Positions 8,390-39,150 of a DNA stretch of 64,000 nucleotides are shown here, one piece after another (the stretch's first letter is position 1; the number at the start of each line of letters is the position of its first letter). Under the pieces are notes generated by a model that was not told where the DNA came from, ran no database searches, and worked only from the letters and a program-made list of their open reading frames with translations. The translations under genes and the position numbers were made by a program. The DNA comes from Euglena gracilis. Its lineage: Eukaryota. The DNA lies in the NCBI GenBank assembly GCA_039621445.1, contig CP154954.1:35635703-35699702 (forward strand), written 5' to 3'.

Positions 8390-8450
8390 CAGTGCAGAAT
8401 TATACGCCAAGTGGTTGTCCATCACCACGATGTCAGAGTTGGCCAGCGCC
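8390..8450 (-). CDS. HK exon: receiver domain, phospho-acceptor Asp strand (3' end uncertain)
   Basis: (E)[16 protein letters not shown]; preceded by nonconventional 3' end CTG-ctggc. Confidence 0.7.
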
Positions 8451-11400
8451 GCCAGCAGGGGGTGTCTGAAAAGGAGAATGCCCCCCGGATGCCCCATAAA
8501 AAAAAACAGATATAGAGATAGACATAGATATAGATATAGATATAGATATAGATATAGATATAGATATAGATATAGATATAGATATAGATATAGATATAGA
8601 TATAGATCTCGATATAGATCCTTTAGATAGACTATAGATAGATATAGATATAGATATAGATATATATAGATCGATATAGTATAGATATAGATTTAAGTAT
8701 ATGGATCTAGAATATATAGATATGGATATAGATATAGATATAGATATAGATATAGATATAGATGTAGACGTAGATGTAGATATAGATATGGATATAGATA
8801 TAGATATAGATGTAGGTACAGATATAGATATAGATATAGATATAGATAGACATAAGGTAGATAAACTTATTCCTGACCCTGACCCCACCCCTGGACCTTA
8901 ACAAGCCTTTTCCAAATGCCCCAAGGTAGCCAGCCCCTGGGTTCCGACATAAACTGATCGACCTCGGCAGGCGGGTACCCACTTGGTGAAGGTATGGCGA
9001 AGTACCCGACGCGCAACGTCAGAATCATCGACACGTGAAGAGGGCCACATCCATGAGAAACAGTTTGAAAGGCCAAAAAGTGCGTGGGGTCCGGAATCCT
9101 CTGGTCCGGGGGTGGACAGTGCAGGGGCCAGAATGACCTAACCAGAAATGAGCGACAAAGCGGATTCAGGAACGGGCTGGGATGGCAAGGTCAGCGGGTC
9201 AGCAGTGTGACACGCGAAGGCATGAGCCGTGGACCAGTTTATCGAGGTGGGGGCTCCACTGTTTTTGTGTGATCAGCAGACGAAAGAACAGGAAGGGCGG
9301 AGCAGGGACCAATGCCCCCGCAGGCCGGAGAGGCCACCCTCGGCAAAAAATTTTGACCCCTGAGGGCAAGGGAGGCGGCGGCGTTTGCAGGCAGGGCCCC
9401 GCGGGGGTGGGCAGGGGTGACAATCCACAGGGCCTTCAGTGGAAACCGTCGGCCAGCGCTTTGCCCACGGCCAGCAGTCCTTCGGTTCTGACTTCAAAGG
9501 TTGGGTGTGTGGGGTCTCCAAAATAAACCCCCCAAAAAAACAAGACGCCCCCATAAAATGGACCTCCCAAGAATAAGACCACCCCGGACGTTCCGAGCAA
9601 AAATCCATGAAATGGACCCCCCCATGACGGTGGAAAAGGAATGGCCAGAGGCCTGAAGGAAGGCACGACAAGAAGAGGTGAAAGGTGGAAAGTGAAAAAT
9701 CTTTTCCTTGTGCCCCACTTTGGCCATCCTCGGAGATATCTTTAAAATGGCGTGAGAATCAGTGCTCAAAGGGGCATCCCAGAATAATTTTCCAAATATA
9801 AACACAAAAATTCTCCAGCAAAAATCCATAAAATAGACCCGCCCCATGAATAAGACCTCCCCCATCGGGCTTTCCAGCAACCGACCCATAAAATGGACAC
9901 GGGGAGGGGGTGTGAACAGTTTCCAAGATCCAGGCATCTTTTAAAGACCTCTGGGGGGAGGGAGGGTCCCCCCATCCACCCAGTCCGGCGCGGGACCCCC
10001 CCGGGGGGGGGGGGCGGGGACCCCCCAAAAAATCGGGCCGAGGACATTTCCCAAAGAATTTTCGGCGCTTCGCGCAGAAACCCATTCCCGGGCCTCCTGC
10101 CTGGGACCCCGGGGTCCGGACCCACCAACCCCCCCCCCCTCGGGGGGTTTTCTGACTTACAGTGCAGCTAAAAATTACGGAAGACAGAAATTTTGGGAAA
10201 ATACCCAAATTTTGCCATATTCTTTTTCTCGTAATTTTCTGACTCCGTCGGTTTCCGACGCCCTCTTGGGAAGCTGCAAGCACAATGCTGGGACGGCCAT
10301 GGTTTGACTCCTCAGAGTCAATGAGGACACACTGTGTCTTCGTGTTCAGCAAAACACCCGTTACGCACAAACTCGTCACAGCGAACGCATTTACGGGCTG
10401 TTTGTGTGCTACATTCACAAGGATGTGTGGGCTCAGCAAGAAGGGATGCTTTGAGGCAGGGCGGTTCTTACCCGCCCCGCCCTGGGCCATTGTCGCGTGA
10501 AAAATCGGGCGGCACTGAGGGGGGGGGGGTGACAATTGCCCGGGGTGACAATTTGGCTGGCACAAAGGGGGGGTGACAATTGCCCGGGGGCGTCAATTGC
10601 CCGGGCGTCAATTGCCTGGGGGCGTCAATAACCCGGGGGGGCGCGGGTAAGCAAATAAAAAAAATGCAACCTCACCCAGCACAACACGTGGGACGGCAGA
10701 GTCATGGTACAAAGTGGGGCCCCCATTCCCTCCCATACCTCAAAATTTTTGTTGCCCGCATGTTATTTGGCCTCCCGGACCCTGAAAACCTGTTTTGGAG
10801 ACGAAATTGAGTGTCTGTAGGAAAAAACGACGGACAGTTTTTGGACCGAAAACCATGGTGTTTGGGATCAAAAACTGGTCAAAAAAGTCAAAACCCCTCG
10901 AAAATAGTTTTGGGTCCGCAACCATTTTTTTTGGCCTCCCAGCCCCGGAAAACGTGTCCTTGCGCCGAATATGAGCGGTTTTCGACCCCCCGGCGGCCCC
11001 TTTTGAATCCCATTTTGAATCCCATGGTGGTTGGGTTTAAGAAAAAAAAGGTCAAAACAGTCGGAAAAAAGTCGAAAAAAATCGAAAAATTTTTATCCGA
11101 AACGATGTTTTTGGGCCTCCCAGGCCCGGAAAACGCGGTTTTGAGCTGAAAGCGTTCTTCAACCGCGCGACATGCAACTGTTCGAGTGCCCGGGGAGGGG
11201 GGGGGGGGCCCCCCCCCCCCCGACCACCCTGGCAAAAAAAAATAAACCTCATCCTTGTCTACCGATCTTTTCTGTGGTCAAATCGCGCGACGAATGAAAC
11301 TGTTCGAGAGCCCAGGGGCCATAAACCTCATCAACAAAATCTCCAAACCCTTCCCTCCAAACCCCCCATACCCCCCATACCAGGTATTGAATAGTGCTGA

Positions 11401-14400
11401 GCTCTTAATAAGTGCTCACCCACCCCTCATTGACACCCCCATATAAACCGGCTTAGGCGGCCTAACTCGCACTTAGCTTTGAAAGTGACTGTAAATTTGC
11501 GCCGACGCGCAAATCCCAAAAAAAGTTTGACCATCGACCACCATGGCCTGAGACTCGAGACAGTCTGAAAACAGTGTCTCCTTGCACCCCAGGGCCTGGG
11601 GACGAAAGCAACGACTGGGAACTGCACAGTCCACGGGCACAGCGCTCCCGAGTCCCAGTGTGCATGAACACAAAGCGCCGGGTGATGAAAATGAATGAAA
11701 ATGAAAGCGCAAATGGAAATACAATTTTTAAAATTGCAAAAGCAACATGGCTTGCGCCGAAGCGCAAATATAACTGTTTAAAACTTATCTCACAACGCAG
11801 GGAGACCACGGCCCTGGTGGAGTAACAACACCAGAGGGGATAGAGCACAAAAATGTAGAACAGGGGGACGGAAGCCTACTCTCAGTCACGTTGACTTAAA
11901 ACTGGTCAACATTGCGCGTCGGCGCAAGAGCCGCGTTGCTTTGACAATCTTAAAAGTGTATTTCTACTTGCGCTTTGGCGCAATATAACTCTTAAATTTC
12001 CATTCTTCATGAGCCTACCCATTGCGCTTTGGCGCAACAGCCATCAAGTTGTATTTTCCATTTTTATCACTGCGGGTGGAGAGAGCAGTCCTGGAAGCAT
12101 CTCATCACCAGAGCGGACAGAGCTCAGGTGGAGGGAAGCCTTGCCTGGGGCAGGAAGCCAACCCCCTGGTGTGTGAAAGCAACCACCAACTACTTGATAG
12201 CCAGACGTGCCTTGTCCTATGCGTTGTAAACCCAACTGCCAGTGCCGGAGGTTCCTCCCACTTGCCTCGCACTTAAGCGTGCCTGAGGGGCCCTTCTCTT
12301 TGGCCGACTTTTAAAAGTCGGAAAATACCTGTGTGGAAAAGAACAGGTACCAGATAAACCCTGGGAACCACAGCCGAGGAAACAGTTTTAGGCGTCGAAA
12401 GGGTGTTTTAAAGAAGCTTGTCACCCCCCTTTCCTCGCCCAGGATTTGAAGCACAGAACTTTGGGGATGAGCGAATGGAATTGAGAAACCGAAAGGGCCC
12501 ATCAACAACGGCGGAGAAGGGAAGACATGCTGACACGCCTTTTTTCGGTAATTTGCAACCCACCAGACAGCCACATGCAACGAGGCAGATGGAGGCATTG
12601 TTCAGCAGAAAAAAAACCTTTCTGTCAACGTCCCCAAAAACCCCACTTTGTGCACCGAGTGCAAGGTCACTGAGGCCCTCCCGCCTCCCGCCCACCATTC
12701 GTCTTATTGTAACAACCACTTCCTCCCCAGCACCTGAATAGTTCAAAAGCACCAACCCAGCTTCTGGCACAGCAGCGCACAAACCCTCCTCACCATTCTC
12801 CCCTATCCCCCACCTTCTCACACAGCACGAATGCATTCAAATACATCTGCCATTTAAAAGGACATTTGCTCTTAAGCGCAAATTTTTACCTTCCACTTAC
12901 GCGCAAATTAAAGACTTGCGCTTAAGCGCAAGCTAAAACAGAAGCCGCTGAGTTTGTGGGAGTCCCTCTGATGTGTTACGTGTGTCGGGGGCCCCTCTCT
13001 GCATGGCCAGTGCGGGCTTGGTGAGGAAATACATTTGCGCCGAAGCGCAAGGGACATGCCTACATAATGCACTGCTTGTTCATCCACATTACACGTCAGC
13101 CGCGTGTTTGCACTTCTCAGTTTTTTTGTATGATGGTTTGCGCTTCGGCGCAAATGCATTTCCTCACCTAGCCCGCACACTTGCTGTTCAGAGAGGGGCC
13201 CCCGACACACTGTAACACATCAGAGGGACTCCCATAAGCTCAGGGGGCTTCTGTTTTAGCTTGCGCTTAAGCGCAAATTTATAATTTGCGCTTAAGCGCA
13301 AGCTAAAAATTTGCGCTTAAGCGCAAATGTCCATAAACATTGCCTTCTGTGCCCGGCAGTGTGGGGCCTGGCGTTGCTCACCAGACGTTGGGACAGGTCC
13401 CTGGGCTTGCCCTCAATCCCCCCCACCCCCCCCACCCGGGTCGGTCCCCCTGTACCGCGCCTCCCGCTTCCACCACACAGGGATCACAACATTGTGACAT
13501 TCCGTTTTTTCCAACTTTTCACACTGTGTGTGTAGAGTCCACCCTCTGGATGCCTCAGCAACCAAACTCTTCACGGACATATCACAGAGCCAAAAAAAGC
13601 AACAAAAAGGGCCAATTGTCACCTGGACTGTGTGGCACCATCCGGGGAACACAGTCAAGGCTTCAAAAACGAGGGACTCACACCGGGGGTTTCGGCCCTT
13701 TTTTGGGAAAATTCACGTGTCTCGGCGGTCAAACCCAGGGTTTTGGACCTTTTTCAAAATGGTGCACAGGCCGAAAAACACCAAAATTGGGCCTGTTCCC
13801 CGGGTTCCAAAATCGGAAAATGATGCCCACGCCACCGTGGAGGGTCTCCGCGGAACCAGAGGGTCAAAAGGGTGGGTTCTACCGCCGGGTCTCAAAGAAA
13901 TCGAAAATTTGCGCCAAAGCGCAAGCTAAAAATGAAAACCTTAAGTGCGAGTTAGGCCGCCTAAGACCGGCCCACTCCATGGAGCTCTGTTGACTGAAAT
14001 GCAAAGGTTTTGTGCCCGAAACAGGGCGCCAGGGGGGGGGGAAACGCTCATTTTTGGCCCAAAATACACCTTTTCCGGGTCTGGGGAGCCAAAAAACGGC
14101 GTTTCGAGCAAAAAAAAATCTGGATTTTTTTCGTGTTTTTTTGACCCGAAAATGACCGAAAGTGAGTGGGTTTACAGCCCAAAACGGGGCGCTGGCGGGT
14201 CGAAAAACACTCATTTTCTGCCCAAAAACAGTTTTTCTGGGTCCGGGAGGCCAAAAAACATCGTTTCGTTTCGATTTTTTGACTTTTTTAGACCCGGTTT
14301 TGACCCAAAGTCAATGGGTTGGCAGCAGGCAAGGACAGTCATCCCCGGTTTTTGGTCTCCGGTGGGGTCCGGTGGGATCCGGTGGGATCCAGTGGGATCC

Positions 14401-17400
14401 GGTGGGATCCGGTGGGATCCGGTGGGGTTCCGGTGGGTTGCCTTGGGGGGGGGGGGATCGGGAATTCATCAATTATAAAATTGCAATAAAACAGCATTTT
14501 GGGTGAATTTGGTCATTTTCGGTGTTTTTGGCCCAAATCACCTGGTTTTGCCGGCAGATCTTATCAAAACTGTACCAATGGTCACCGAATCTGTGCACAA
14601 AATGGCCAAGAATGGCCAAAAGGGGGCAAAAAGTGGATAAAAAGCAGTCAGAAGTGGCCTAAAATGGACACAAATGTGCAAAAATAGCCAGAAGCAGCCA
14701 AAAATGGTCTAAAATGCCAAAATGCAGCCCACGGTGGTCAAAAGTAGCCAAAAGTGGTCCAAAATGGCCAAAAAAAAATGGCCAAAAAGGCAAAAAGCTG
14801 CTAATTTGCAGGAAACCAGACAAAAAAAAGAATGCAAGTCAACTACAGATGGGGTACTGGTGGAAATTTGTGAAAATTGCACATTCGGACATGATTCTTC
14901 TCACGCGTACCATTAATCCAGAAGAAAAATCTGTGCATGGAAAAAAAATCTCCGGTGGGATCCGGTGGGATCCGGTGGGACCCGGTGGGATCCGGTGGGA
15001 TCCGGTGGGGAACCCACTAGTCAAATGGTCGAAAAACACCGGTGGGATCCGGTGGGATCCGGTGGGATCCGGTGGGATCCGGTGGGATCCGGTGGCTGTC
15101 CTTGCCTGGCTGGCAGCCCAAAACGGGGCGCTGGTGGGTCGAAAAACGGTCATGTACGTCCAAATAACAGTTTTGCTGCGTCCGTGATGCCAAAAAACAT
15201 CGTTTCAGGTCAAAATTTTTTTGGATTTTTAGCGACTTTTTTGTCCCAGAGTGGGTTGGCAACCCAAAACGGGGCGCTGGCGGGTCTCGAAAACGATCAT
15301 TTTCGGCTCAAAAACAGTCCTTGGGTCATGATGGCCATCTTGGGTCTTGATGGGCATCATGGGTCATGATGCCCATTATGGGTCATGATGCGCACCATGG
15401 GTCATGATGGCCATGATGGGCCGGGGGGTCGAAAAACGCCCATTTTCGGCTCGGAGGCCAAAAGGCATGGTTTTGGGCAAAAAAAAATCGATATTTTTCG
15501 ACTTTTTTGGCCGAAAATGGCTAAGTCCACCAGTGGAAAAAGTGTACAAAATGGCCTCCATTGGTCGAAAACGGGCATATCTCGGACTGGGCGGGGAGTT
15601 GCGGGGAAATCAAAATACCGGTAGATGGGGCGTTCCAAGGGCTTCAAATTAGGTCTCTGGACATTTCCTTTCATTTTGCTTCATTTTCGAGATATTTTGA
15701 AAATTGACATTTTTTGGCCGAAATGGCAGAGTCCAAAGGGGGGGGGGCTTATCCAGGGGGGGGGGGGCGGTCCGATCCTACCCAGTTTGGACCCCTTCGT
15801 GCGTGAATGACTCGGGCCTGGCGGGGAGTTGGTGGTCAAACCAAGGAGATAAGGAAACGAGAAATCCAGTCGCTCGCGACTGGAAAAAAAAACGGGAACG
15901 GGGCCGGGATCATGGTGATAATCCGCCGGTTCCCGAGGTGGCCCCGAGGGAGGGGGAGGGGGGTTTGGGGGGGTTTTCCCCCAGGGGTAAGCTTCGCTCT
16001 TACCCATAAAGGGATAAGAGCTCAACGACCCCCCATACCCCCATACCCTAGGTATGGGGGCCCCACTTCGTGCCATATGTGGGACGTCATGTGAATTCAT
16101 GGCTAAAGAGAAGAAAAAGGAAAACTAAAAATTCCTTCTTAAATTAAGCAGAGAGAAGGAAGAAATTTTTGGAAAAAAACAGATTTTGCCAAAATTAATT
16201 CTTCCAAAATAAAAATTTTGCCAAAATTTTTTTAAAATTTTTCTCGTATTTTTTTGCTGTAATTTTTGTCTTCCGTAAGTTTTAGCCACACTGTAAAAAG
16301 AAGCCTGCCAGGGTCCCCTCCTTCCCCCTTTATGTCACGACTTTGTTGCAATTCCGGTCAATTATAAGAGTACGGTAAGCTTTCGGATGTGTACTTTGGG
16401 TATTGGCCACTCTTTGAACAAATTAGGCACAGATTTAGAAGAATACATTTTAAACCGCATTTTGGCCGAAATTTCGTCCAGACCACCTTCCCCCCCCCTA
16501 AACCCCCCCCCCCTAATAGAAGCACGGGTGCGCTTATAGCGGACTGCCGCCTCCGGCAGCGGGGGGGGGGGGTGTGCTTCTAGTCGGACCCTACCTGCGC
16601 GATTTCTTGTTGATTTCGTTTAGAGATCTCATCAAAATGGGGGGGTGCTTGTAGTGGACCGCAGCCTCCGGCGGCGGCGGGTGCGATTTTATTTAGACCC
16701 TGCGCTTGTAGCGGCCCCGCGCTTCTATTAGGGGGGGGGGGGGCGGGTTTATTTATAATTTAACCGTAACTCCAACCTATCACCAATACAACCCGAACCT
16801 GAACTTAAATGTGTTCATCCAAAACGCTGTCGCATGCCACCAACATACAGCAAGGTTCCGCATCGAAACCTTGGAAGTGGCTGCATTAAACATTTTTCAT
16901 TTTTTCATTGTATAATGCAGTGGTCCTGCTTGTATATAACGTGTGGGGTAGGCCCATGGCAGGAGGCTGCCATGTGTCCTGTTGTTTGTTGTTGGAGGGA
17001 GGAGGGGAGCACGTTGTGTTGTTACGCTGTAGTGCATTGGATTGTATTGGGTTAGGTTGCGGTCATGCAAGTCGGTGCGAGTGGGCGCGCACGGGAGCTG
17101 TTTGGGTTCAAAAGTGCATGCACAATTCCTGAAGACCTTGGGACAGGGTATGCGCATTGGGCAGGTGAAGCTGCGGTAAGAGGGGGGATTTCAAAAAAAA
17201 AACGGCACATGTAAGAAAAATTCCTTTAGAATGTACAAAGTACTTAACTTAACTCACGCTGAAGGATTATGAACTGTAAAAAGCTGTAGAATAAACTGCG
17301 AAAATCCCGAGCAGAGGTTTTTTAAGACCTGGGGGAAGAGGGGGTCCGGAACGCACCCACTCAACCACAGGGCCCGTGGGGGTTCGGGGGGACCCACTTT

Positions 17401-18095
17401 TGGCGTTTGGGGGGAGATTTTGAGGTCCAAAATTTCTTTGGCGGTTTGCGTCGAAAATAGACAGGAAAACCCCCCTCTGGCTCTGGTTTGTCCCGACTCC
17501 CTCCCCCACAGGGAAGGGGGGCCAGACCCACCCGCCTGCCCGCCCACCAACCCTTCGCTTCTCGGGGCACCAGGAGTAAAATATATATGGCAGCCTCCAA
17601 CTATACGACCCGTGGGTCCTTTAGTTGGAGCGGGGGGGGGGGGGGCGTGTGGTGGGACCTAGGTCCAACCTTCGAAGAAAGTCGGGGTTATGGATTGGGA
17701 TAGGGTTGGGGTTATGGCTGGCGGGCCGCAGGGCTCCAATTTTTGGGAAGTTAGGGGCGCCTTTCGGAAGCATTTGGGCCGAATTTGGACCCAATTTGGA
17801 CATTTTCAGGCAAACATGCGTTTTCGAAAGTCTTCCCAGATGGGGACCTAACTTCCGGCCTAACTTGGTCCCTAAAATTTGCCAAATTTCGGCGCGCCAA
17901 TCCTAACCCTAACCTTATTCCTAAAACTAAGTGGGAACCCTCCCCGAATCCGCCGATGGTTGCCCAGAATCTGCGCGTTATCCCGGCGCCGTGGGTATAT
18001 GTATATGTATATGTATATGTATGTATATATATATATATATGTATATGTGTGTGTATATATATGTATACATATGTATATATATGCATATGTGTGTG

Positions 18096-18134
<39 letters not shown>

Positions 18135-19034
18135 ATATATGGCAGCTCCCCGCTATATGGCCCCCCAGGGGGGGCATATAGTGGGGAGTAGGGGTCAAGA
18201 TAATTTTTTTGCGTTAATGATGGAATAGGGTTAGGTGCGCGAGTTAGGCTTAGGGTTAGCCTAACTTATAGACGGGCCTAACCCTAAGCCTAAGTCGCGC
18301 ACCTAAACCCTATTCTAAACCCCGTTATTGAAGGTATAGGGTAAGGTGCGCACATGCTAATTTGCGCTAATTGGCTATGTTGCGCTAATCGGCTATGTTG
18401 CGCAACATAGCCGATTAGCGCAACATAGCCAATTAGCGCAAATTAGCATGTGCGCACCTAACCCTATACCTTCCATTAAGGGGGTGCCCAACCCGGTGTC
18501 AAGCTTAGTCCCCCGGGGGGGTACTTAACTTAACACTTGCCATATATATAAGTGTGTGTATACATATATACATATATATAATGTATATAATATACATACA
18601 CGCATGCATATGTATATATCTGATCCCGAGACAGCCAAAACCAAAAAAAGTTCTTCAACAGCTTTAATTTTTTTGTCCCTGTTTGATCCAGGCATTCTTT
18701 GGGGGGTGCATTTTCGGGCCTCCAGTACCGTCTGTACCATGGCTGGCCGCCACCCCCCCCAAGAGTCTGTTGGAAAACCACAACACAGCGTCCAAACCCC
18801 GCGACGGCATGGGGGTGGTGGGGCAAATCCGTCCCCAGCCGGCGGTATCCTGGGTCCACAACGCCGGGGTCCTCAGGGGCTGCATGGGGGAGGACGACAG
18901 CTTCCAGGGAGGTGCGGAATACGACCCGCTCTCCTTCCTGCTGGAGCGACACGGCCATCCCAGAGATCTGGGCTGCGGGCAGGTGGCCAGCCTCCCAGGA
19001 AATGCCTTCGTTGCCATGGTCCGGCATGTGCACG

Positions 19035-19068
<34 letters not shown>

Positions 19069-19082: not shown

Positions 19083-19113
<31 letters not shown>

Positions 19114-28200: not shown

Positions 28201-31200
28201 CGTACTCCAAAGGATGCATGGCCAAGTGCCACGACAAGGATTCTGTCACCCCCCCACTTGATTTGCTTTACAGAAGTGAGCGCTGAATCAGGGTAGAGGA
28301 TGGGCACACCCTAGCAGAGGCTCGCACCCAGAATCCCCAAAAGGAGACCCAAGGACAAATTTCATTTAAAAGAAACTCCTGAGCTCCTCCAAAGAATTAC
28401 TGTGGGTTCCTCACCAGCAGTCCAAAAGGTTCACCCAACCTGCAATGGCAACGGGTGGGATCTGAGGTTGGCTTGAAATCACGTTTTTCCTTCCTGCGCC
28501 ATGTCTCCACCCCCGGTGGGTTGCTGCTGCAAGTCCTGATTTTGGCCCGGCCCTGAGGTGTAATGAAAACCTTTGGCGTTTGTCAATGACGGTTGTCAAT
28601 GAGGGTTGTCAAACCTTTGACGGGTTGTCAATGAGGGTTCCTCCAACTTCTCGGGGAAAAAAAGAACAACTTTTTTTTAAAAAACAGCAATTAACTTTTC
28701 CTATTTATAAAAATGAGCTGGACAACCCATTTTTTTCAACACAATCTCAGCTATTTCATTTGCAATCTTTCTGCCATTCCAATGCAATCCAGTTTCAGCC
28801 TGTTAACGCACACGTCACTCACATCGTCTGCTCTCCAAAACCCTTCGAGCCAAATTTTGCAATGACGCAAAATTCCATATCGGGGATGAGAGAACGTTCC
28901 CCCGCACACCCAGTGCGGATGGCGACAACGCAACGATGGGCGCCGGGCAATCGCTGGGCGGGATATTAGTGTCGACCTGCGGTGACAGGTTGGCGATCAG
29001 GGCGACGGTGACCGGGATGGAGAGGTATGTGAGGACGAACCACACGTTGCGGGCAGGGCGGGAGGGAGGGGTGGAAGGGGCGCAGCGGGGGACGCAAGAT
29101 GGACCAGCGAAAAATACACAACAAAAAAAAAACACAACAAAACAGCACAAAACAGAACAAAAAAAAACACACAAAAACACACAAAAAAACACACAAACGA
29201 AAACACAAAAAAAACACACAACCACGCAAAAACACAATAAAAACACAATAAAAACACAATAAAAACAAAAAACAAAAAAATGCAAGTTGCGCCCTCCCCG
29301 CTGCTCTGAGCCTACTAAGTAGATTCCAATTCATGACGAGTCGACTAAGTCTCCCAAAGGCGCATTGAACTGATCACTGCTGAGAGAGACAGCAAGCGCA
29401 CAGCACGCACACTGGACGAAAATACACCTGAGATGATGAAAGAGAGGCTTTTCGTCAACCAGGGATCAAAAGCAAGCTGCAACAGGAGTTGGAGTGCCTG
29501 ATCCCCACAATGTGTGCAGGAGGCCAATAAAAAATCGTTGCAACACACCCCAGTGAGTTGCTCGAAGCCTTACAAGTGTCCAGCCCTGCACGAAAAGGCA
29601 CGAAACTGACGATAAAACCAAAATCAAAGCTTCTGAGAATGCCCACGCGGCTGGACAACAGCACTTGGACTGCATTTTCCTGCGGGGGACGCTTCCACGC
29701 CACACACACCGTGTGTTGCACGCCGCATACGCTGCATAAACACGCACCGCGTGTTTCACGCCATGCACGCCGCGCCGCACGCCGCATGTGACGTGCGACA
29801 CCTGCCAGGCCATCTTAAGAACATTTTGCAGGTACTCGGCACTGGGCACTGAGCACTGGGGGGATGGACCACTGGGATGGATGGATGGATGGATGGATGG
29901 AAAAAACGGACCAGCTAGACCCCCCCTGGGGGAGGGGTCCGGGGTCCCCCGACAAAAACAAATTTCCTCCGGCGCTTTGCGCCAGTCATTGGAAAAAAGC
30001 TTTCCATTAGCTAGCCTGCTAGCAGACCCCCCCCCCCGGCGGGGTCCATTGGAATTCCCGCTAGCTAAATTTGGACCCCCCCCCAGGAGGGGTGCTGCGA
30101 ACCCTTGAGCAAAGGCCTGACACCCTGGGCGACGCCGATGAACTGCAGCAGGTCAAAGAGCAGCAGCAGCTGAACGGCAGCGATAATGAGGTGCTTGCGG
30201 CTGGCCTCCCGCGTGATGTATGGCCAGGCGGGGTTCAACCAACCCTGGGGGGGGGGGGCAGGGAGAGAAATTCATATCGGAGGCCTTCAAAAAAATTGCG
30301 GAAAAATTGTGGGAAATCGCGGAAAATTCTAGAAAATTTGCAGAAAAATTGATATCGGGAATGTACGCATTTCTGCTGGAGGAAACTTAAAAATTTTTTG
30401 CAATTTTGCAACATTGGTGTACCTAAAATATACCAACATTGGTATATTTTGAGCCGTCGTTCACACATTTTAAAACAAAAAGGCCCAAAAACATGACTTT
30501 TGTAATTTTGGGAACGTGCTGTTCAAAGAATATGGATTTTGTTGGCAAAAAAAAAACGAAAACGGCGAAGGACTGATAAAATCTTTGGTCTCAGGGAAAA
30601 ATCTGCTCTACAATGAAGATTTTTCCAAGTCAGAATCATTTCCCAGCAGAAATGCAAAAGAAGCCAAAAACACACAAAAGCCTGCAAATTTTGCCCAAAA
30701 TGGCAAAAATTGGGAAAATTTTGAAAAATTTGCACGAAATTAGCAAAAAGGTACTTGCATTCCATTCTTGCGAACCATTCAAGGAATGGCTGGGACTCAT
30801 TTCACCTTCCATTTCAGATTCATGCGGACAAATTACGGAAAGAGAAAAAATTGCGGAAAAAAAATGCGAGAAATTGCGGGGAGTTGCTGAAAATTGTGGA
30901 AATTGCGGAAAAATAATGGATATCAATCCCCCCTTGGAGGGGGGTCCCAAAGTGCCTTGGAGTGTCTGGCTGTGGACTCGAAATAGGGGCAAGAATGGCT
31001 CTGTTCAGGTCTTCCACTTGGCCGAGTGCCCAGTCCCTTTTGACCATGGGACCCCCCCCCCCCGGGTCGGATCTAAGTGCCTTGGGCTGCCTGCACAGGC
31101 AAACACCCTCCCCCCCCCCCGCCAGATCCGACCACCCAGGGTGGGGTGTCCAGCTAGCGCCTTTTCCCTAAAGGAACTTCTTGGCCTGGTGTCCCTGAAA

Positions 31201-33353
31201 GGCTGGTTTGCCGACTCCATTTCAGCACCAAGTGCCGAAAATTATAGGGACTCGAAAATGGCCCCCAAAATGGTCATCCCGGGGGTGGGGTCGGCGACAC
31301 CGTAAAAGTCAGCCTGTGTACTGCTGCAGCTCTATCGTCAAATAACCGTTGGCTCGCAGGGTGAAGAGGAGGTCAACGGGAGAGGTGGGCCTTTTGAAGC
31401 AGTGTATTCGGGAGGCGCGCAACTGTCAGAGAATGTGCATTTGCCTTCTTCATTCAAAAAAGCAACGAAAATAGAACGGTGGTTTCCAAATGTAAAATAA
31501 AACTATGATGTGCATCTCTGTTTTGAGAGCTTTTTTTTGCGCATTGAGTGCTTCCTCTTCATGTGGCACTTCGTTTTCCAAAATTAAAGCAAACAAAAGT
31601 AAACAAATGAAAAATAAGAAAATAAAAAGAAATGATGCCCCATTGTTGTCATCCTGAACATCCTGCGTCTGCAGCTTGGTCCACACATCAGGCAGCGCGT
31701 CCCGTTGACTGACCACCAACTCCAGACCAATCATATCGTGGGCCTGCCAGGGACAGAGCCGACCCGAGTCCAGCGTCTGTGGTGCCCCCCAAATAACCTG
31801 GCAGGACCCTTGCCCCTGGCAGTGGCCAAATAACTTGGCGGGGGGAGGGGCAAAAAAGACGGTTCCAGTAACTTGGCACCTCCTTTTTTCAGGCAAAATC
31901 CCTTTACGACACCGAGAAAAAGCAAGGCCCAAATAACCTGGCAGGAGGGCAGGGCCAAAAGTTGGTTCCAATAACCTGGCACCCCGCCAGGTTATTTGGG
32001 GGGGGTTACCTCCCTCCCACCTTGTCCTTGGCACGCCAAAGGACGGGAAAGTGTGTTTGACATGGGGGCGGGGGTGTCGCGGACCAGCCGTGTCAAGGAC
32101 ATGGGGGGGAGGGTTCCTCAAATTACCAGTCTGCCTCTCAAAGGCCCAAGGGCTGTCCGTCTCACCTCCTCCCCTCCTGAAACTCCTGAAACTCCCCCCA
32201 GTTTTAACCTCCAGCCTCTGGCATTCCCCTTTCGAGCACCCGCCCCAACCCCAAACTCAACATACAAATGCGGAAACCAATATGCCTCTTTAGACCCTTG
32301 GTAGGCAAAACGGTGATTTGTGGACCCCTTCTATGCGATGCACTACCCTCGGATTACAACCCCCCCCCCACCAGACCCCAACCCCTGGAGTAAAAAGTGT
32401 GGGGCCACAGGCCACCGAAAAGCCCCAATCAATCAAAAGCAGTGGAAGCACACAGCCATGGCAAGTGCAGAGTTCACATAAAAGTGGACATGCCGCTGAA
32501 GGCGGTGGCCCACTACAGCGTACCCCTGAAAGTTCACCTCCACTTCAATTGGGGGTTCACCGAGAGAAACCCTGGCCAGATGACAATGCCGACCAGGGAC
32601 AGCGCCGAGAGGCACAGCAGCCCCTCGGAATGACCCCAGGCAGGGAGGCAGGGGGTTGGGGGGTTTGGCAGCTATCTGGGGAAGCCCCTTTGTGGAAATG
32701 GAACAGGGTGAGGTCTGGGACGTGGAAAAGGCACAGCGGCCACTGGCGAACCACACCGGTGCCCAAGTGTCCTGCAATCGATGATTGTCGCGGCGGCAAA
32801 CAGGCTTGTGCTTACCGATGGGGGGGGTGCTATGGGGTGCCTGCCCCTAGCACCCCCCCATGGGGTAGGCACCCGATTAAGCACAAGCCTGGCGGCATAT
32901 CCGACACACACACAACTAAGGGGCCTGGGAAGTTTTAATCCGCTCTTCGTAATCTTCCAATGGCGCTGATGTTCATGTCACAATTTTCTCATGACGCAAA
33001 AGATTTTCCCTTTCAAAGGTGTAATGGCGGGAAGGGACGTTACCTCCCCCAACCCCAGCAGAGGTTTTGTACAACTCTGGCCAAGCGGTGGGTTGTTGGG
33101 TTGAACCTGAACTCTTACCCTGAAGCGACCATGGGTGTATACAGGAAGTCAGAGACACTGAAATTAAACAAATAACCTTTCCAGGTCGAACTCAGACGGA
33201 AATTAAAAGCAAATCCAATCAGCACCCCACAAGGCAGGTCGGCCCCTGACTAAAAAAAAAAATCCTGTTCCAATACGCTTCAACCAAAAAATTAGGATTT
33301 TTTACATGCAGGCGGCACTGCGTGCTTGCGTGCATGCGTGCGGGCGTGCTTTT

Positions 33354-33384
<31 letters not shown>

Positions 33385-36300
33385 CGCGTGTGTGTGTGTC
33401 ACAAGTTGTCCAAGCAACCCCCCAACATACTGTCATAGGAAAAAATAACATCTGGAAAAAACATATGAATGAATAACATCTAAAAAGGAGGCACAGAACA
33501 GGTTATCACTGTGCCAAAATTTGGTCCAATTTTCTTTGACGTTCGTTATTTTCACCCTCCTCCAAAACATCACCAGTTTTTAACCCTGAAATTTTTGAGA
33601 TTTTTTTTGTGAAAAAAATGTGGGTTTCCATCAAAAAATCATTAATTTCGAGTTTTCAAGAAAATTTCAGAAAATTTCCCGGCCAACGTCCTCGTTTTAC
33701 CAAAATTGGTGAAAATGCTGTGGTGGGGGGTCGACCCCCCCCCCCACCAGGCCTTCCCGTTCTGCCCTACCTGGGACCGGGGCAATTTTTGCAATATGCT
33801 GTCATAGGAAAAAATAACGCCCGGAAAAAATAACATCTAAGCCCCTTTTAGATGTTATTTAATCAGACGTTATTCTTTCCTCATTTGCTCCAGATATAAA
33901 ACGGAAAGAGATAGGATGGATAAAATGGATAGGATGTGGGATGAAGAAAACGAATGACTGTGGCAATCATTACCAAATGACGAGGCTGACCATCAAGCTT
34001 GCATTCAGTCCACAAGCCAGATCCCGCATGCTTCCAGCCCTTGCAGCCGCAAATGCAGCTGATGCTTCTGACCATTTGACCTCAAATTCCCTAGCCCTTT
34101 GCACAAGCACTGTCGTTGTCGAGATCAAATTTTACTGACATTTTTTTCTCTTGGAATTTTTTTTGATTTTCAATGGCATTTTTTTTTTGCTTCAAAAACC
34201 TCTCAAAATAAAAATCTTGAGAAAATGTTGAATTTTTGGAAGGTGTAAAAAAATGCCCTGGTCCCGGGGAACCCACCTCGGGCAGGGGGGGGGGCTGCAC
34301 ACGGGCTGGTCAAAAACTGCACTGGGAATTTCTTGCAAATAAGAAAAATCTTCTTGCTCTTTGAAGCATTTGGCTTGTGTGACATTTGGCCACAATGCTT
34401 AGGGCAAGACCCAATCATATTCAGGAGCTTGCGCTCCTTTGCGACACCACGAATTTCGAAATCCTCAACGTCAACCAAGAATTTGCACAATTTGCACAAC
34501 AGTTTTTGTATTTACTCCCTAGGAATCCCAACATAAATAGTTGAATCTGCTCATGCTCAGGAGTGTTCAGAAAAAAAGCTGCAAAAAACTGCAAAAAAAT
34601 GCAAAAAAAACCCTGCAAAGAACCCAAAACGTGAAAACTGCAAAAAAAAAAAAACTGAAAGAACTGCACGGTGCACATCCCCCCCCTGCCTCGGGCCTGA
34701 GGAGGAGAGGGGTCCACATCTTGCAACAAATATATTTTATTTTCGGCCATTTTCGGCCATTTTCGTCCATTTTCGGGACCCCTGCCTACAGAGCCCAAAT
34801 TTTCATTTTCGTCCATCTTCGGCCTTTTTCAGCCATTTTCGGCCATTTTTATTATAGATGCTTGTTCACCAAGGAAGCGGAAGGTGGTCGGACCGCCCAT
34901 CCCCGGAAAGTTCACCGGTGAACATGCACCAGGGGGGGGGGGGCAGGGCGTACCCTTGAAATTTCACCCGGTGAAATTCACCAGTGAAATTCACCGGGAA
35001 CTTCACCGTTTTGATGGTTAGAGGTGAAATTTTGATGGGTGAAAGTTTGCTCTTTTTCCTCTCAAAAAGACCATGTTGAGGTTCATGGGTCACGGGCAAA
35101 TATAAAATATATATCGGACGTTGCACTTGGCAGGTGTTGAAAAGCACGGTGGTGTTGGGGCCTTTCTGTGTACTGGGGAAGGGGTCCTTCAGGGGGCGGT
35201 CCTTAACTAAAAAAAAAATCCCGTCCCTTACGGCCCGCCCTGCCATAAGGTCGACAGAAATCCAAATTCTTCGTTGCAAATTCTGGGGGGAGGGGTGTTA
35301 CCAGATACACACACACACACACACAAATCCAACAACCCTCCCCCCTGCTTTAGCCGTGGACCCCTCTGTACCACGACGGGGCCATCCCCAGCCATCAGAG
35401 GACACCCATGAAGCATGCCACCTCACCCCTCCGGGAGGGGCTTCCCCCCTGCCTGGCACAAGGCCGCAGGCCGGGGGTGTAGATGGCGAGGGCCAAGAGG
35501 GCAATGATTGCCCACAAGGGGGACAGGGAGGGGGCGACAATGCAAGGTGACCCGCAGGCCAGACCGACGAGGGGAAAATAATAATAATAAATAATAATAA
35601 TAAATAATTATTATTTTATTATAAAAAATAATATAATAATGTGATAATAAAATAATGATGATAATAATACATAATGACAAAAGAAAAATAGTAAACTCCC
35701 ACAAACAGCAGGCCAGAGATCCCGCTGTGTCACTTCGATGCTCATGCGATCAGGTTCCCTGAAAAGGGTTCCAGCATGACTGAAGGTCGGTGACACCTGC
35801 TTTGTCCTGAATTGGGTACAGCCAGCAGTATCTCCCCCTTCCCCCTTCTCCAATTCTTCAATGCAAAGCAAAGACCTTTGCTCTGCATTGGAGAATTGGA
35901 GGAGGGGAAGGGGGAAGACACTGCCTGAAGGGGGAAGACTGCTGGTGGTGACTGTTCTGTTCTTCCGATTCGGATCATGATCGCAAGGCAGGTGTGCAAC
36001 TGTAACGTTCTCCAGCAACGACAACCCACATAGAACTTATTTGGCCGGCGTCCCCCAATGCTCGCTGCTGGGCGACCAGCCCCAACCCTGTGAGGACAGG
36101 TTAGGGGGACTCAGGCAACCCCCCCCCCCCCCCCCCCCTCCCCCCCCCCCCCCCGGGAAACCTTGTTGCGAGGTGGGGGTCGGACCCCCGGAGCAGGAGG
36201 GGGGGGGCACAGCCCCCTCTACCACCTCATACATACCCTGGGTTGGCCAAAGGTGACCAAAAGTTCGGCCTAAACACGGCTCCTTTGGGGGCGGACCATA

Positions 36301-39150
36301 ACCAGCTTCCCCTTGGCTGCCAACGGCAGCAGCTGCTCGACGAAGATCAGTGGGACAGGGTTGGCCCAGAGCTTGTACTTGGTGGCCCGCACGAAGAACA
36401 GGGCCAGGAAAAGCAGACACAGGCAGCCCCCGGGAGTGGGTAACCAACCACAGAAGAAAATGCATTTTGCCGCCTTGATTTTTAGCCCATTCAGCCCATA
36501 AAAAAAAATGGATGCTGCGATCCACAAATCCACAAATGAATGAATTTGTTTGTCAATAAACTCCTGCAATCAGCCTGCATTGCAATCAAAACTGAAAAGC
36601 ATTGGTTTAGATTTATTGGGAATATCGCTTTGGTTATTCTTGTTGCCATTTCTATTTCAACGCTGTATTATTATAAATATTATTATTCATATTATTATAT
36701 TATATTATAAAAGCTGCTGCGACTGCAAATGCTGCTGCTGCTGCTGCTGAATCTAGCACTGGCATTGGCGCCTATTAGCAATTATGCAGATGATCTTGTG
36801 CTAGGGCACTTTTGGCCGTGTGCCCTACCCCTCCCGGGGGGGGTCGGATTTGGAGTGCCTTGGGGTGCCTGCCCAGGCAGGCACCCCCCCCCCCCCCGGG
36901 GTGGGGTCGGTCGGCACCCGACTAAATACAGCCTGCGAGCGGGGTCGAAAGGAAAAATTCCACATCTTCCCCAATGTTTTTATTGTTTCTGCAAAAAAAA
37001 ATCAACTGGACACCCAGTTATTAAGCAGAAATTGTCTATATCGAGAACTGTGTCCCAAACGCCGGTTCGGGCGGGAAACCTGTGCCTAGGACGCCGGTTT
37101 GGGCGGTAGCCCGAACCGGCGTCCTAGGCACAGGTTTCACGCCCGAACCGGCGTTTGGGACACAGTTTTTTGAAACCGTGTATTGGGGGCTCTGGTTTCA
37201 CGCCCGAACCGGCGGCCGAGGAATCACGGCCAATTTCGCCCAAAACACCCATGTTTGGGGCTGTTTTGGGCAACTTTGGCCCAAATGGGCCGCCGGTCAA
37301 AAATGGCAGATTCCACACTTAGGAAGCCATGTCACCCATCAATCGAAAGCTCTTCTCAAGGACTTTCAACAGATGGCCACAGGATTCGGCATAATGCACT
37401 CAGCGCTTATTTTCAGCGATCGTGTCTTCCAAAATTTGACATCCTAATTTGTCAAATCCCACAGCTCAGGTTGCATATTGCATATCAAACGAAAGGTCTC
37501 GCCAACACCTTTCGCTTGGTACCCACAGAACTCAGCCAGGTTGCAAAGCGCTCTCAAAATCAGCGATCGCATTTTTCCGCATTTTTCGGACCCCATTTGC
37601 ATATCTGAAATTGCACTTTTCAGCTGCCATGTTGCCCATCGATCGAAAGCTCTTCTCAAGGGCTTTCAGCAGATGGCCTTAGATTTCTGCCATGCTGCGT
37701 GGTATTCTACTTCAGAAATTCTCCAAAATTGGCCAAAAGGAAACTTTTCCTCAAAAACCCCCAATTTTTAGCCCAAGACCCCCAAAACTGCCCAAATATG
37801 ATTTCCACCTGTCTACAAACCTTTTGGACACTTTTTGGCACTTTTTATTTTGGGTCTCCTGGACGCCATTTTCATGCCCGAACTGGCGTCCAGGACGCCG
37901 GTTCGGGCAGGAAATTTCCCGCCCGAACCGGCGTCCTGAACGCCGGTTCGGGCGTGAAACCAGAGTCCCCATACACGGTTCCAAAACAAAAAGGTTTTGG
38001 GGTCGGGGCGGTTGAGGTTGGGTGGGGGTTGGAAGGGTAGAAGGAAAAAAAGCCGGAGAGCACCAGAGCACTGCCTGGGCAGGGACTGCAAGGCCCACCC
38101 CAGCTTGCACATCTGCAAAACGCAGGCAGGAGCGGGAACCAGCGAATCCCAGCGGGGACCGCAGACTGCCATCTGGGGGGGGGGGGCTTTACACCTCCAT
38201 CAGGCTTTGTTTGAGGGCCCGGGGGGTCCACCAGCGAGCCATTTCACCAGCCACTGGAAAAAAGCCACCAGCTAGACCCCCCCCGGTCTCCCCATGACTA
38301 GATATCCGCTGGCCAGTTTCTGAATTTGGACTAGCCGCAGTCGAGCCCCCCACCCCCACGGCCCACGGGGATATTCTGAGGGACCCCCCCCCCCTTTATT
38401 GTTCCACCGACCTGCCCCCGGGAGGCCCGACCGGACAATAACGGGGGGGGGGGACAATAAAGGGGTACCAAAGGAATTTCATTGGCCGGGCCAAAAAAAA
38501 CCCCCGTCAGCCGGGGCCCAGGGACAATAAAGGGGGGGGGACAATAAAGGTGGTAGAAGCCTGTCCTCAAGGTTCGAGCAACCCAACCCCCAACCCCACC
38601 GCCCCCACCCACAGGGTAGGGTTGGATTTTGATTGGGCCCCTGGCGTGGTTTCTTTGACCTTGGGGGGGTGCAAGGAGCTCAAAGCTATGTAATAAGCAC
38701 GTGGTGCGTGGATTTTGGGGTGAGTCCCGCTTCAGCTGGAGTCTGAGCCAAGGCCGAGCTTGGGGAATTGAAAAGTTTTTGCTCGTTTGATTTGAGGGCA
38801 TCGGGTGAGGACAGAATTGGTTGATTTTAGAGGTCATAGCGAGTGTGCGTGCAACACACATAAACTCATTAAAATAAATGCACAAACAAATGCAATCGTC
38901 AGACAGTCGGTAATTGTGGCAAGGAAAGGGTTTCCCGACCATTGATTTCAAACCACTAGGATTTGAGACGTAAAAGACACAAAAGGATATACCATCTTGG
39001 CAACGGCATCTCGGCATCAACTCAAATGACACATTTATTTGTCTGAGTGTAAAAACACAGACGGGCTTCCATCCTCCTGGTTATTTAGCCTGCGGTGGCT
39101 CTGGTACGCCTGATCCATCTCGGCATCGTCGAATCTGAGTGGCCGTGCCC
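8390..39150 (-). CDS. Split gene: membrane-bound hybrid sensor histidine kinase (TM region - HisKA-like - HATPase_c - receiver); outer limits approximate
   Basis: Hand-spliced core: ...[45 protein letters not shown]|(x)[185 protein letters not shown]..., then receiver fragments [11 protein letters not shown] and DIVVMDNHL. Domain order is collinear. Confidence 0.85.
8451..8942 (-). other. Nonconventional intron (492 nt) containing an (ATATAG)n array
   Basis: accCAGgggctggc ... gacaccccCTGctggc; joins [15 protein letters not shown] in frame. Confidence 0.7.
8508..8850. repeat. (ATATAG)n microsatellite
   Basis: Direct observation. Confidence 0.95.
8943..9032 (-). CDS. HK exon: receiver domain N-terminal part, with an apparent internal frameshift
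   Basis: [22 protein letters not shown] (9032-8967) followed in a different frame by [10 protein letters not shown] (8971-8943). 5' boundary not resolved. Confidence 0.65.
10160..10260. mobile_element. TA|CAGTG-ended (Tc1/mariner-like) terminal repeat; inverted partner at 16261-16293
   Basis: taCAGTGCAGCTAAAAATTACGGAAGACAGAAATT matches the reverse complement of 16261-16295 with 4 mismatches. Confidence 0.55.
10469..10649. mobile_element. TA-flanked MITE with CAATTGCCCGGG units
   Basis: TACCCGC...GCGGGTA ends; same internal units as 6582-7065. Confidence 0.7.
11452..13965. mobile_element. Non-autonomous DNA transposon copy 1 (24-bp TIR, 5-bp TSD)
   Basis: Perfect TIR CTTAGGCGGCCTAACTCGCACTTA (11452-11475; inverted at 13942-13965); TSD ACCGG at 11447-11451 and 13966-13970; homologous along its length to 55329-57512 in the opposite orientation. 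Confidence 0.92.
14359..15094. repeat. (CCGGTGGGAT)n 10-bp minisatellite blocks
   Basis: Arrays at ~14359-14436, ~14952-15010 and ~15039-15094. Confidence 0.9.
15680..16000. repeat. Dispersed repeat, inverted homolog at ~45325-45620
   Basis: Shared CCAGTTTGGACC, ATGACTCGG..CTGG.GGGGAGTTGG, ATCCAGTC.CT.GC.ACTG and TCATGGTGAT blocks. Confidence 0.75.
16499..16751. mobile_element. TA-flanked MITE with CCCTAATAGAAGCG inverted repeat (second copy 59421-59668)
   Basis: TAAACCC..CCCTAATAGAAGC / GCTTCTATTAGGG..GGGTTTA; the internal sequence is shared in inverted orientation with the 59.5 kb copy. Confidence 0.8.
18330..18473. repeat. 144-bp near-perfect spacerless palindrome
   Basis: Centre TTGC|GCAA at 18401/18402; one mismatch; adjacent hairpin at ~18223-18315 is built of TTAGGG/CCCTAA-like units. 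Confidence 0.9.
18856..18974 (-). CDS. HK exon: end of HATPase_c (3' end uncertain; could extend to 18798)
   Basis: [39 protein letters not shown]. Confidence 0.8.
18975..19588 (-). other. Nonconventional intron (614 nt) containing a (GT)n/(GTGC)n array at ~19027-19283
   Basis: agtCAGggggcc ... ggccacCTGcccgc; in-frame join FMA|AQISG. Confidence 0.8.
19589..19680 (-). CDS. HK exon: ATP-lid / G2-like box
   Basis: [31 protein letters not shown]. Confidence 0.85.
19681..20013 (-). other. Nonconventional intron (333 nt)
   Basis: gagCAGcgcttccctttcggga ... tcctggggagggggtcgCTGgcacg; paired ends; join KLT|EEF. Confidence 0.85.
20014..20133 (-). CDS. HK exon: HATPase_c beta strands (40 codons)
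   Basis: [40 protein letters not shown]. Confidence 0.85.
20134..20860 (-). other. Nonconventional intron (727 nt)
   Basis: ggcCAGgaccgcccccggc ... gccacgggggttgcCTGcagct; the nearby GT/AG alternative is out of frame. Confidence 0.8.
20861..20959 (-). CDS. HK exon: HATPase_c N-box (33 codons)
   Basis: [33 protein letters not shown]. Confidence 0.9.
20960..22045 (-). other. Nonconventional intron (1086 nt)
   Basis: ggcCAGagccacccgggccgagtggg ... cccacgccccggccccgggggcgCTGgtgct; long terminal stem. Confidence 0.88.
22046..22093 (-). CDS. HK exon (16 codons)
   Basis: [16 protein letters not shown], bounded on both sides by nonconventional junctions. Confidence 0.85.
22094..23161 (-). other. 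Nonconventional intron (1068 nt)
   Basis: cccCAGggtgcgtcgggg ... ccccggcgggctCTGccgtc; 14 of 15 positions pair when G-U is allowed. Confidence 0.88.
23162..23247 (-). CDS. HK exon: second helix of the dimerisation domain
   Basis: (Q)[28 protein letters not shown]. Confidence 0.85.
23248..23323 (-). other. Nonconventional intron (76 nt)
   Basis: aatCAGgctgaagctt ... aaattccgcCTGgcagt; join QQARQ|CLQRG. Confidence 0.8.
23324..23357 (-). CDS. HK micro-exon (5' end +/-1 nt)
   Basis: [10 protein letters not shown]; the upstream intron has a CGG/CCG stem (cggcgaggccctgcc pairs with ggctgggcctcccgccg). Confidence 0.7.
23447..23620. mobile_element. hAT-like MITE with perfect 8-bp TSD
   Basis: CAGGGGTTATTTTT...AAAAAAAACCCTG; TSD GTTGCGCT at 23439-23446 and 23621-23628; central CGGCGCCTTCGGCG hairpin. 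Confidence 0.88.
25125..25175 (-). CDS. HK exon: second half of the H-box
   Basis: [17 protein letters not shown]. Confidence 0.85.
25176..25861 (-). other. Nonconventional intron (686 nt), GAG/CTC variant
   Basis: aaaGAGgac ... gccCTCcgccc; join LNH|ILKN restores the H-box. Confidence 0.78.
25862..25945 (-). CDS. HK exon: coiled coil plus phospho-His (CAC at 25864-25862)
   Basis: [28 protein letters not shown] (28 codons). Confidence 0.87.
25946..26096 (-). other. Nonconventional intron (151 nt)
   Basis: tacCAGggccacc ... ggtgctgctCTGtgatc; join LTR|EAQ. Confidence 0.78.
26097..26179 (-). CDS. HK exon: last TM segment and juxtamembrane helix (5' end approximate)
   Basis: [27 protein letters not shown]. 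Confidence 0.72.
28960..29048 (-). CDS. HK exon: TM segment (3' end uncertain)
   Basis: [29 protein letters not shown]. Confidence 0.72.
29049..30130 (-). other. Nonconventional intron (1082 nt)
   Basis: gccCAGggtgtcagg ... cctcccgccCTGcccgc; join FIGV|NVWF. Confidence 0.78.
30131..30219 (-). CDS. HK exon: TM segment
   Basis: (Y)[29 protein letters not shown]; not present in the supplied ORF track. Confidence 0.8.
30220..31319 (-). other. Nonconventional intron (1100 nt)
   Basis: acaCAGgctgac ... ccccgcCTGgccat; join ELQQ-t|ac(Y)-ITRE. Confidence 0.78.
31320..31377 (-). CDS. HK exon (5' end approximate)
   Basis: [19 protein letters not shown]. Confidence 0.7.
31669..31743 (-). CDS. Probable HK exon
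   Basis: [25 protein letters not shown] followed by acgCAG; partner junction not resolved. Confidence 0.5.
35150..35252. repeat. Dispersed repeat, inverted copy at ~58327-58430
   Basis: GGGGTCCTTCAGGGGGCGGTCCTTAAC..AAAATCCCGTCCCT.ACGG.CCGCCCTG present in both. Confidence 0.85.
36335..36420 (-). CDS. Candidate N-terminal TM exon of the HK
   Basis: [30 protein letters not shown]; coding-like island on the same strand, boundaries unresolved. Confidence 0.45.
36800..36934. repeat. Dispersed G/C-tract repeat family (also ~52755-53063 and ~32820-32890)
   Basis: TTTGGCCGTGTGCCCTACCCC...GGAGTGCCTTGG...GCCTGCCCAGGCAGGCA shared with the 52.8 kb copy in inverted orientation. Confidence 0.75.
37040..37985. 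mobile_element. Foldback-like element with multiple GCCCGAACCGGCG subterminal repeats
   Basis: Inverted clusters at ~37050-37215 and ~37875-37980; internal ~52-bp direct repeat at ~37327 and ~37626. Confidence 0.65.
39080..39150 (-). CDS. Candidate N-terminal exon of the HK
   Basis: [21 protein letters not shown] then aacCAG; resembles the LxF..E..Y motif that precedes TM blocks of receptor-type signalling proteins. Confidence 0.45.

Follow-up and report, generated by a model that had tools for sequence, protein, structure and literature searches.

A kinase gene of small exons in a repeat-rich window

The window, meaning the whole 64,000-nt stretch of DNA analysed here, holds a minus-strand gene that runs from ~39178 down to at least 8396 and that we model, within the window, as 23 exons of 31–120 nt each. 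Its body (8396–39178) is placed by RNA joints, paralog matches and intron geometry. Coding sequence makes up 1,687 of these 30,783 nt (5.5%), the 22 introns measure 76–9,469 nt, and the gene's 3′ end was not reached. Once joined, the exons give a reading frame that stays open for 549 codons without another stop or frameshift and ends in a stop at codon 550. We are highly confident that the gene is transcribed, is of Euglena gracilis type and encodes a member of a euglenid family of membrane-bound hybrid histidine kinases. The same confidence applies to the assignment of all its introns within the window to the known nonconventional class.

The surrounding DNA is eukaryotic and repeat-rich, at ~50% G+C, and each end of the window carries microsatellites. 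A 6.4-kb CTCTGT array occupies 1–6390 and long AAG/AAT/GAC/AGG triplet arrays occupy 60761–64000; both terminal arrays yield long spurious open reading frames and may mark poorly assembled sequence. An element of ~2.4 kb, probably a transposon, occurs twice in opposite orientation (11610–13968 and 55326–57361, 81–93% identity), with one copy in the predicted 9.5-kb intron of the kinase gene. A spacerless palindrome of two 82-nt arms that are 95% complementary (18320–18483) also sits inside that long intron, and 4.5 copies of GGTTAG, a run resembling telomeric TTAGGG, lie at 46945–46971. On the plus strand, 9 kb from the kinase gene, a leucine-rich-repeat gene (48094–55263) comprises nine exons, most of ~84 nt and encoding one repeat each. 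All nine are flanked by AG/GT in the DNA, their borders being approximate and read from DNA alone.

Coding-like stretches of the kinase gene were first located by reading the minus strand from 39.2 kb to 8.4 kb. RNA was aligned to 19400–39300 (20 kb of the 31 kb), using three raw runs and one contig set, or 4 of the 24 listed runs. Among the joints listed for this region we counted at least 14 distinct splice junctions, 12 of them present in raw reads (1–11 reads each) and two in contigs only; a loose end at 20960 supplies a fifteenth, its letters being those of 22050–22066. The RNA revealed four exons of 31–41 nt that had been overlooked in sequence reading. Seven further junctions were predicted from intron geometry and tblastn searches with a paralog, and two of these agree with the ends of an RNA contig piece at 19587–19684. 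Reads of run X23 in exon-bearing bins map almost entirely to the plus strand, as expected for a minus-strand transcript in the usual stranded library. RNA depth was low, and no spliced-leader end appeared among the RNA matches listed for 19400–39300. The reads carry allele differences, so some may derive from a sister allele or a very close paralog. Two or more expressed alleles, or paralogs that are nearly identical, are represented in the RNA from this region: exon 3 occurs in two contig versions, and exons 11 and 18 contain several differences that look silent.

All exon coordinates refer to the minus strand. Exon 1 (39083–39178) ends at an RNA joint and would start at the ATG at 39178, a position inferred from the length of the paralogs; near 39211, a pyrimidine-rich tract with a terminal AG may serve as its trans-splice acceptor. 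RNA joints define both borders of exons 2 (38081–38121, 41 nt), 3 (36319–36414), 4 (35460–35509), 7 (31320–31350, 31 nt), 8 (30131–30219), 9 (28960–29048) and 10 (27489–27523, 35 nt). Exon 5 (32578–32631) has an RNA joint at its 5′ border and a predicted 3′ border, and exon 6 (31660–31748) has the reverse. The membrane part ends in exon 11 (26097–26182), with a 5′ border from raw reads and a 3′ border from a contig only.

RNA likewise places exon 12 (25862–25945), which carries the helical linker up to the H-box His codon (His280), and exon 13 (25121–25175), which carries the remainder of the H-box. Exon 14 (23324–23362, 39 nt) precedes the 76-nt intron; its RNA joints leave 5 and 6 letters unplaced, which we read as allele differences, and its exact borders were set by intron geometry and frame. 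Exon 15 (23162–23247) combines a 5′ contig joint with a predicted 3′ border, whereas exon 16 (22046–22093) takes its 3′ border from the loose end at 20960 and has a predicted 5′ border. The N-box (Asn383) lies in exon 17 (20861–20959), supported by RNA and paralog match. Exon 18 (20014–20133, 120 nt) encodes the G1 position, where Asn replaces DxGxG; its 5′ border is an RNA joint, and its predicted 3′ border fits both the contig piece and the paralog. Exon 19 (19589–19680) contains the G2 box (LGL) and matches the contig piece at 19587–19684 as well as the paralog, and exon 20 (18856–18974), the end of the ATPase domain, was placed by paralog match and intron geometry only.

A CAG/CTG intron of 9,469 nt is predicted to follow (9387–18855), below the stretch used for RNA alignment (19400–39300). 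Beyond it, exon 21 (9345–9386) would encode a linker and the first receiver strand; it matches the paralog at 10 of 11 residues and its borders are predicted. Paralog alignment placed the exon here, and an earlier candidate at 9420–9460 was dropped. Comparison with the paralog identifies exon 22 (8943–9034) as the carrier of the receiver's acidic pair, with 29 nt missing near 8972 and a consequent frameshift. Exon 23 (8396–8450), also found by paralog match, holds the phospho-acceptor Asp motif, out of frame as assembled, and has an approximate 3′ border at 8388–8397.

Splice junctions and the euglenid intron code

Nonconventional introns of euglenids are known (Milanowski 2014, PMC3935182), and the literature describes their removal by a machinery that reads border geometry and releases circles. 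Their reported share of Euglena introns is 57% (PMC11170887) or 71.8% (PMC12501133), and their code has been given as 5′-N3CDG...CH′GN5-6|R (Nomura 2025, PMC12501133), with 38.8% of nonconventional introns falling outside its strict form according to the same paper. We listed, for every junction in our gene, all equivalent registers that give the same mRNA. Sliding reached GT/GC-AG at 0 of the 15 RNA-backed junctions and at 0 of the 22 in the model. The published code (N3-CDG...CHG-N5/6|R) fitted 10 of the 15, and three Watson–Crick pairs at +4..+6/−8..−6 with a purine at the exon start were found at 13; of the remaining two, one pairs with a 6-nt spacer and one with a 4-nt donor spacer. Among 20,000 random donor/acceptor pairs drawn from the same gene, these patterns arose at rates of 1.05% for GT/GC-AG, 0.4% for the code and 1.6% for three pairs plus purine. 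A purine opens the next exon after all 22 introns. No back-joint of an intron circle occurred among the joints listed for 19400–39300, where depth was low.

Short repeats at intron borders could in principle displace the apparent junctions of conventional GT/GC-AG introns. Seventeen of the 22 introns can be slid by 1–5 nt, and several begin with GT or GC, as such a displacement would predict; yet no register of any of the 22 reaches GT/GC-AG. This refutes the conventional reading for the 15 RNA-backed junctions and leaves it virtually no probability overall. Slidability itself is a reported property of Euglena introns, with a share of 84.4% and short border repeats already described (PMC12501133). 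We therefore regard the splicing of this gene as ordinary for Euglena, since the gene is cut by known euglenid non-GT-AG introns; their class, code and majority share are already published. The likeness extends to non-GT-AG borders, pairing of +4..+6 with −8..−6, a purine at the next exon, short border repeats and intron length.

Measured against the strict euglenid code, 6 of the 22 introns stand outside. Stems other than CAG/CTG are RNA-backed as GAG/CTC twice (after exons 12 and 13), GAA/TTC (after exon 10) and CAA/TTG (after exon 3), and a third GAG/CTC is predicted after exon 21. The sixth is the RNA-backed intron of 2,828 nt after exon 4 (35459–32632), which begins with GT, ends with TC and carries CAG at +5..+7, giving the 4-nt donor spacer; its longest terminal stem forms in a shifted register. 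In a published knock-in assay (PMC12501133), a 4-nt donor spacer was reported as not spliced. Because the RNA may come from another allele, the exception seen here might reflect allelic variation or an error of assembly. The intron after exon 6 is the one with the 6-nt acceptor spacer. GAG/CTC is not mentioned in the supplement files of PMC12501133 that we searched, and the large datasets of that study may bear on the frequency of such variants.

The mean end-to-end duplex of the introns was −22.1 kcal/mol, compared with −11.8 ± 5.7 kcal/mol for random pairs, but ends paired with their own partners (−22.1) only marginally better than with swapped intron ends (−18.5 kcal/mol, p 0.057). The 76-nt intron folds no better than shuffled sequences (z −1.0), and neither does the 151-nt intron when folded minus its first six bases; with the swapped-end result, this speaks against any strong claim about structure.

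The initial annotation had proposed a ~30-kb gene of small exons, split almost entirely by non-GT-AG introns, and had named RT-PCR or RNA-seq across the junctions as one check. Exons, strand, span and junction type all hold, given the RNA joints and the 549 open codons; the 22 modelled introns are all nonconventional, and transcripts do use non-GT-AG junctions. Its appeal to euglenid nonconventional splicing is supported by the RNA joints together with the slide and null tests. The idea that junctions form through CAG/CTG stems applies to most introns but has to be widened for the five with other stems and the one with a shifted CAG.

A diverged sensor-kinase family and its receiver

A phmmer search with exon 17 returned three hits, one of them a true relative, EG_transcript_6207; the other two are SprB-repeat proteins, dropped as chance matches. 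Searching with EG_transcript_6207 retrieved another four proteins of full length, two of them from E. gracilis transcripts and two from GGOE01 records (EukProt). With the break read as X, the model is 59.6% identical over 572 columns to EG_transcript_6207 and 55.1% identical to EG_transcript_4574. Identity falls to 35–36% for the remaining relatives, EG_transcript_7213 and the two GGOE01 proteins; we take the GGOE01 pair to be from Euglena longa. On the family profile the model scores 707 bits, and none of 51 shuffled or reversed controls exceeds 5.4. This gene's own protein was not found in protein database searches.

Hydropathy peaks indicate about six hydrophobic segments, followed by a helical linker. 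The H-box His280 lies in NHILKN, where the family motif is H[IM]LKN. Five features are invariant alongside this His in all five full-length relatives: an N-box Asn, the G1 Asn, LGL (G2), the acidic pair and the phospho-Asp. Of the two N-box Asn residues, the second is the invariant one, the first being replaced by Val in one relative. The catalytic positions are kept across relatives that are only 35–39% identical. The G1 box contains its invariant Asn without DxGxG or glycines, and the F box is not clear. A receiver with acidic pair, Asp, Ser/Thr and Lys is complete in four of the five relatives; the fifth record is cut short.

Domain libraries barely register this family. HATPase-type Pfam hits occur in three of the five relatives (E 0.008–0.14) and Response_reg hits in four (16.6–26.1 bits), all below cut-offs; Pfam HisKA, HisKA_2 and HWE_HK gave no hit at E up to 1 in any of the five. 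NCBIfam returned weak response-regulator hits only, a Pfam scan of 15 single-exon peptides gave 0/15 meaningful hits, and a PDB search found no match for the kinase core. Compared with the RcsC receiver, the family profile matches weakly (E 0.077) but keeps Asp, Ser/Thr and Lys in register. In the ESM Atlas, residues 255–500 of P0002, the closest paralog, scored 0.97 against HisKA/HATPase_c clusters, sharing 219–230 of 256 features; Atlas thresholds are not calibrated for protein parts, and Atlas taxa do not show transfer. A word search with exon 18 yielded 11 candidates, none of which scored, and a GTDB scan with the family alignment gave 67 pattern matches, none a relative; at that sensitivity the family has no close relative among prokaryotes, a result that is silent on origin. 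HWE and HisKA_2 kinases have Arg after the His of their motif; we discarded this identity, as there is no Pfam match and the residue after His is Ile or Met. This is, in sequence terms, a family of little-described and strongly diverged putative sensor kinases that escape Pfam cut-offs. The proposed order of membrane, HisKA, HATPase and receiver modules is borne out, except that the exons do not join into a whole receiver: there is a 29-nt gap in 9034–8943, and the last ~70 residues were not found in the window, points that the initial annotation does not mention. Neither outcome that the annotation named as refuting was seen. Transcripts use the non-GT-AG junctions, and the closest paralog's kinase region has its high Atlas score, although the Pfam hits lie under cut-offs and include no HisKA, HisKA_2 or HWE_HK. 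For the GHKL ATPase domain taken alone the signs are mixed, with N-box Asn and LGL present but G1 without its glycines.

In the family, about six membrane helices would sense a cue, and the helical linker would control a dimeric kinase core. The ATPase domain would phosphorylate His280, from which the attached receiver's Asp would take over the phosphate for transfer to further partners. These proteins could instead be kinase-dead receptors that keep the fold and signal by conformation or as phosphatases, as the loss of DxGxG at G1, the indistinct F box, the Pfam scores below cut-off and the Val at the first N-box Asn of one relative might suggest. We consider this unlikely, given that the His, the second N-box Asn, LGL and the receiver's catalytic positions remain invariant at 35–39% identity and that AgrC works with Asn at G1 (PMC10482373). 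That source describes AgrC as an active kinase and suggests that its activity follows the level of ATP. Because AgrC has the same change and is active, Asn at G1 probably denotes weak ATP binding rather than a dead enzyme, and an active kinase remains our preferred reading.

The receiver is interrupted within exon 22. The paralog's match to this exon (9034–8943) keeps to one frame as far as 8973 and picks up again in a different frame at ~8971, so that ten paralog codons are represented by one base, a loss of 29 nt. With the usual acceptor at 8450, the stop at codon 550 falls ahead of the phospho-Asp; acceptor 8449, allowed by the 5–6-nt rule, would bring the sequence back into frame and leave the receiver shorter. 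The window copy does not encode a complete receiver in one chain, as the frameshift precedes the Asp and the Ser/Lys part is absent from the window. Neither the last ~70 receiver residues nor the missing ten were found elsewhere in the window, and the former may be encoded on the far side of the 6.4-kb microsatellite with which the window begins. When short proteins were searched for the receiver of this gene, the only find was P0008, which comes from a paralog-type gene. P0008 reads like an open reading frame through paralog-type genomic DNA, with the same exon uninterrupted and apparently the same two borders; since that exon has no intron, the loss lies inside one exon and does not reflect a collapsed intron–exon block. 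A metagenome scan for the receiver exon returned three loci, all unrelated bacterial DNA without a family match. In the assembled copy, the 29-nt loss ends the frame at codon 550, and this allele would therefore yield a kinase without a working receiver, or an unstable message.

We weighed two other accounts of the gap. It may be an assembly error or confined to a single haplotype, so that cells make a full-length kinase, its final exons being located ahead of position 1 of the window. In favour of this, the first 549 codons are undamaged and conserved, the gene is transcribed, the RNA contains at least two alleles, and the region is repeat-rich, with the microsatellite at 1–6390. Against this, the gap falls in unique coding sequence of one exon, intron-free in P0008, and database searches returned no protein of the gene, which is weak evidence. 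On balance we give this account slightly less than an even chance. Rather less probable, though still a serious candidate, is that the window carries an allele in decay, or a pseudogene of recent date, and that some of the RNA was transcribed from a sister allele that is intact and shares its introns. The frameshift ahead of the phospho-Asp, the two versions of exon 3, the 4–6 letters by which RNA differs from the window in some exons, and the suggestion of nonsense-mediated decay in Euglena (PMC12501133) all point that way. Yet one contig reproduces 85 nt of exon 3 without a single difference, raw reads agree with the window at the border of exon 4, and the 549 codons contain no second stop or frameshift.

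Intron history and known systems

If intron types were independent at shares of 57%–71.8%, the probability of 15 nonconventional introns out of 15 would be 2e-4 to 7e-3, and we therefore propose that intron types cluster by gene. A gene with only nonconventional introns, rbcS, and one with only conventional introns, tubG, are named in PMC6221363. In the part of the kinase gene seen here, the likeness to rbcS is the lack of any spliceosomal cis-intron; the kinase gene differs in having at least 22 introns over 31 kb and in being a signalling gene of uncertain origin. Its contrast with the neighbouring repeat gene, whose introns are GT-AG only, suggests that intron type follows gene history.

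An origin of these introns from MITEs has already been proposed (PMC3935182, PMC11282704). We examined border 8-mers split 5+3 for an 8-bp target duplication, and 0 of the 22 introns exceeded 6/8 matches, leading us to reject recent transposon-derived introns with such duplications. Matches totalled 77 of 176, compared with 57.0 ± 6.1 after permutation (p 0.001), with the excess confined to offsets −3..+2. Duplications that have since worn down would account for such an excess, and so would nothing more than the short border repeats already described. At least two intron positions seem to predate the duplication of the paralogs, judging from the P0008 protein sequence. In a broader scenario, euglenids would operate a two-component pathway through a six-helix hybrid-kinase family of their own, with an AgrC-like, low-affinity ATP pocket, that Pfam cut-offs miss. 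The gene would have arrived intronless, from bacteria or by retro-copying, and would then have gained only transposon-born nonconventional introns, with worn duplications at their borders, and acceptor slack (8449 for 8450) could restore the frame in this allele with a shortened receiver. We offer this combined scenario as speculation, and think it improbable as a whole.

The locus provides a compact test set, with 15 RNA-backed nonconventional introns in one gene and five natural exceptions to the code. These five suit the existing knock-in assay and the question of whether the CAG/CTG sequence is read or pairing alone suffices. The locus also reveals a euglenid sensor-kinase family missed by domain cut-offs, in a lineage omitted from the main survey of eukaryotic histidine kinases. 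That survey (Kabbara 2019, PMC6324907) used HisKA and HATPase_c queries; its available portion includes no euglenid and represents Euglenozoa by two trypanosomatids, with 0 kinases. Published expression data for E. gracilis include transcripts annotated as histidine-kinase-like (PMC6776534); transcripts 6207, 4574 and 7213 are absent from the available portion of that supplement. The E. gracilis genome paper (PMC6366073), as far as its accessible text goes, has no section on histidine kinases. We found no paper describing this kinase family in the literature covered, which excludes subscription journals.

Among known systems, AgrC of the HPK10 group resembles the family in being a multi-pass membrane sensor with Asn for the G1 Asp and no DxGxG (PMC10482373). 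AgrC, however, has no attached receiver, and the likeness is one of a single motif. EG_transcript_6207, 4574 and 7213 of E. gracilis and the two GGOE01 proteins share the same domain order and motifs at 35–60% identity. By comparison, the window gene is a distinct paralog, absent from the protein collection, whose receiver is broken and incomplete in the window. The membrane hybrid histidine kinases of other eukaryotes, such as Naegleria (Kabbara 2019, PMC6324907), share the multi-helix sensor, kinase core and attached receiver, whereas our family has neither a HisKA Pfam hit nor DxGxG. The gene thus joins two known kinds, genes with nonconventional introns and eukaryotic hybrid histidine kinases, and what it adds to them is modest: a diverged family and a set of exceptions to the intron code.
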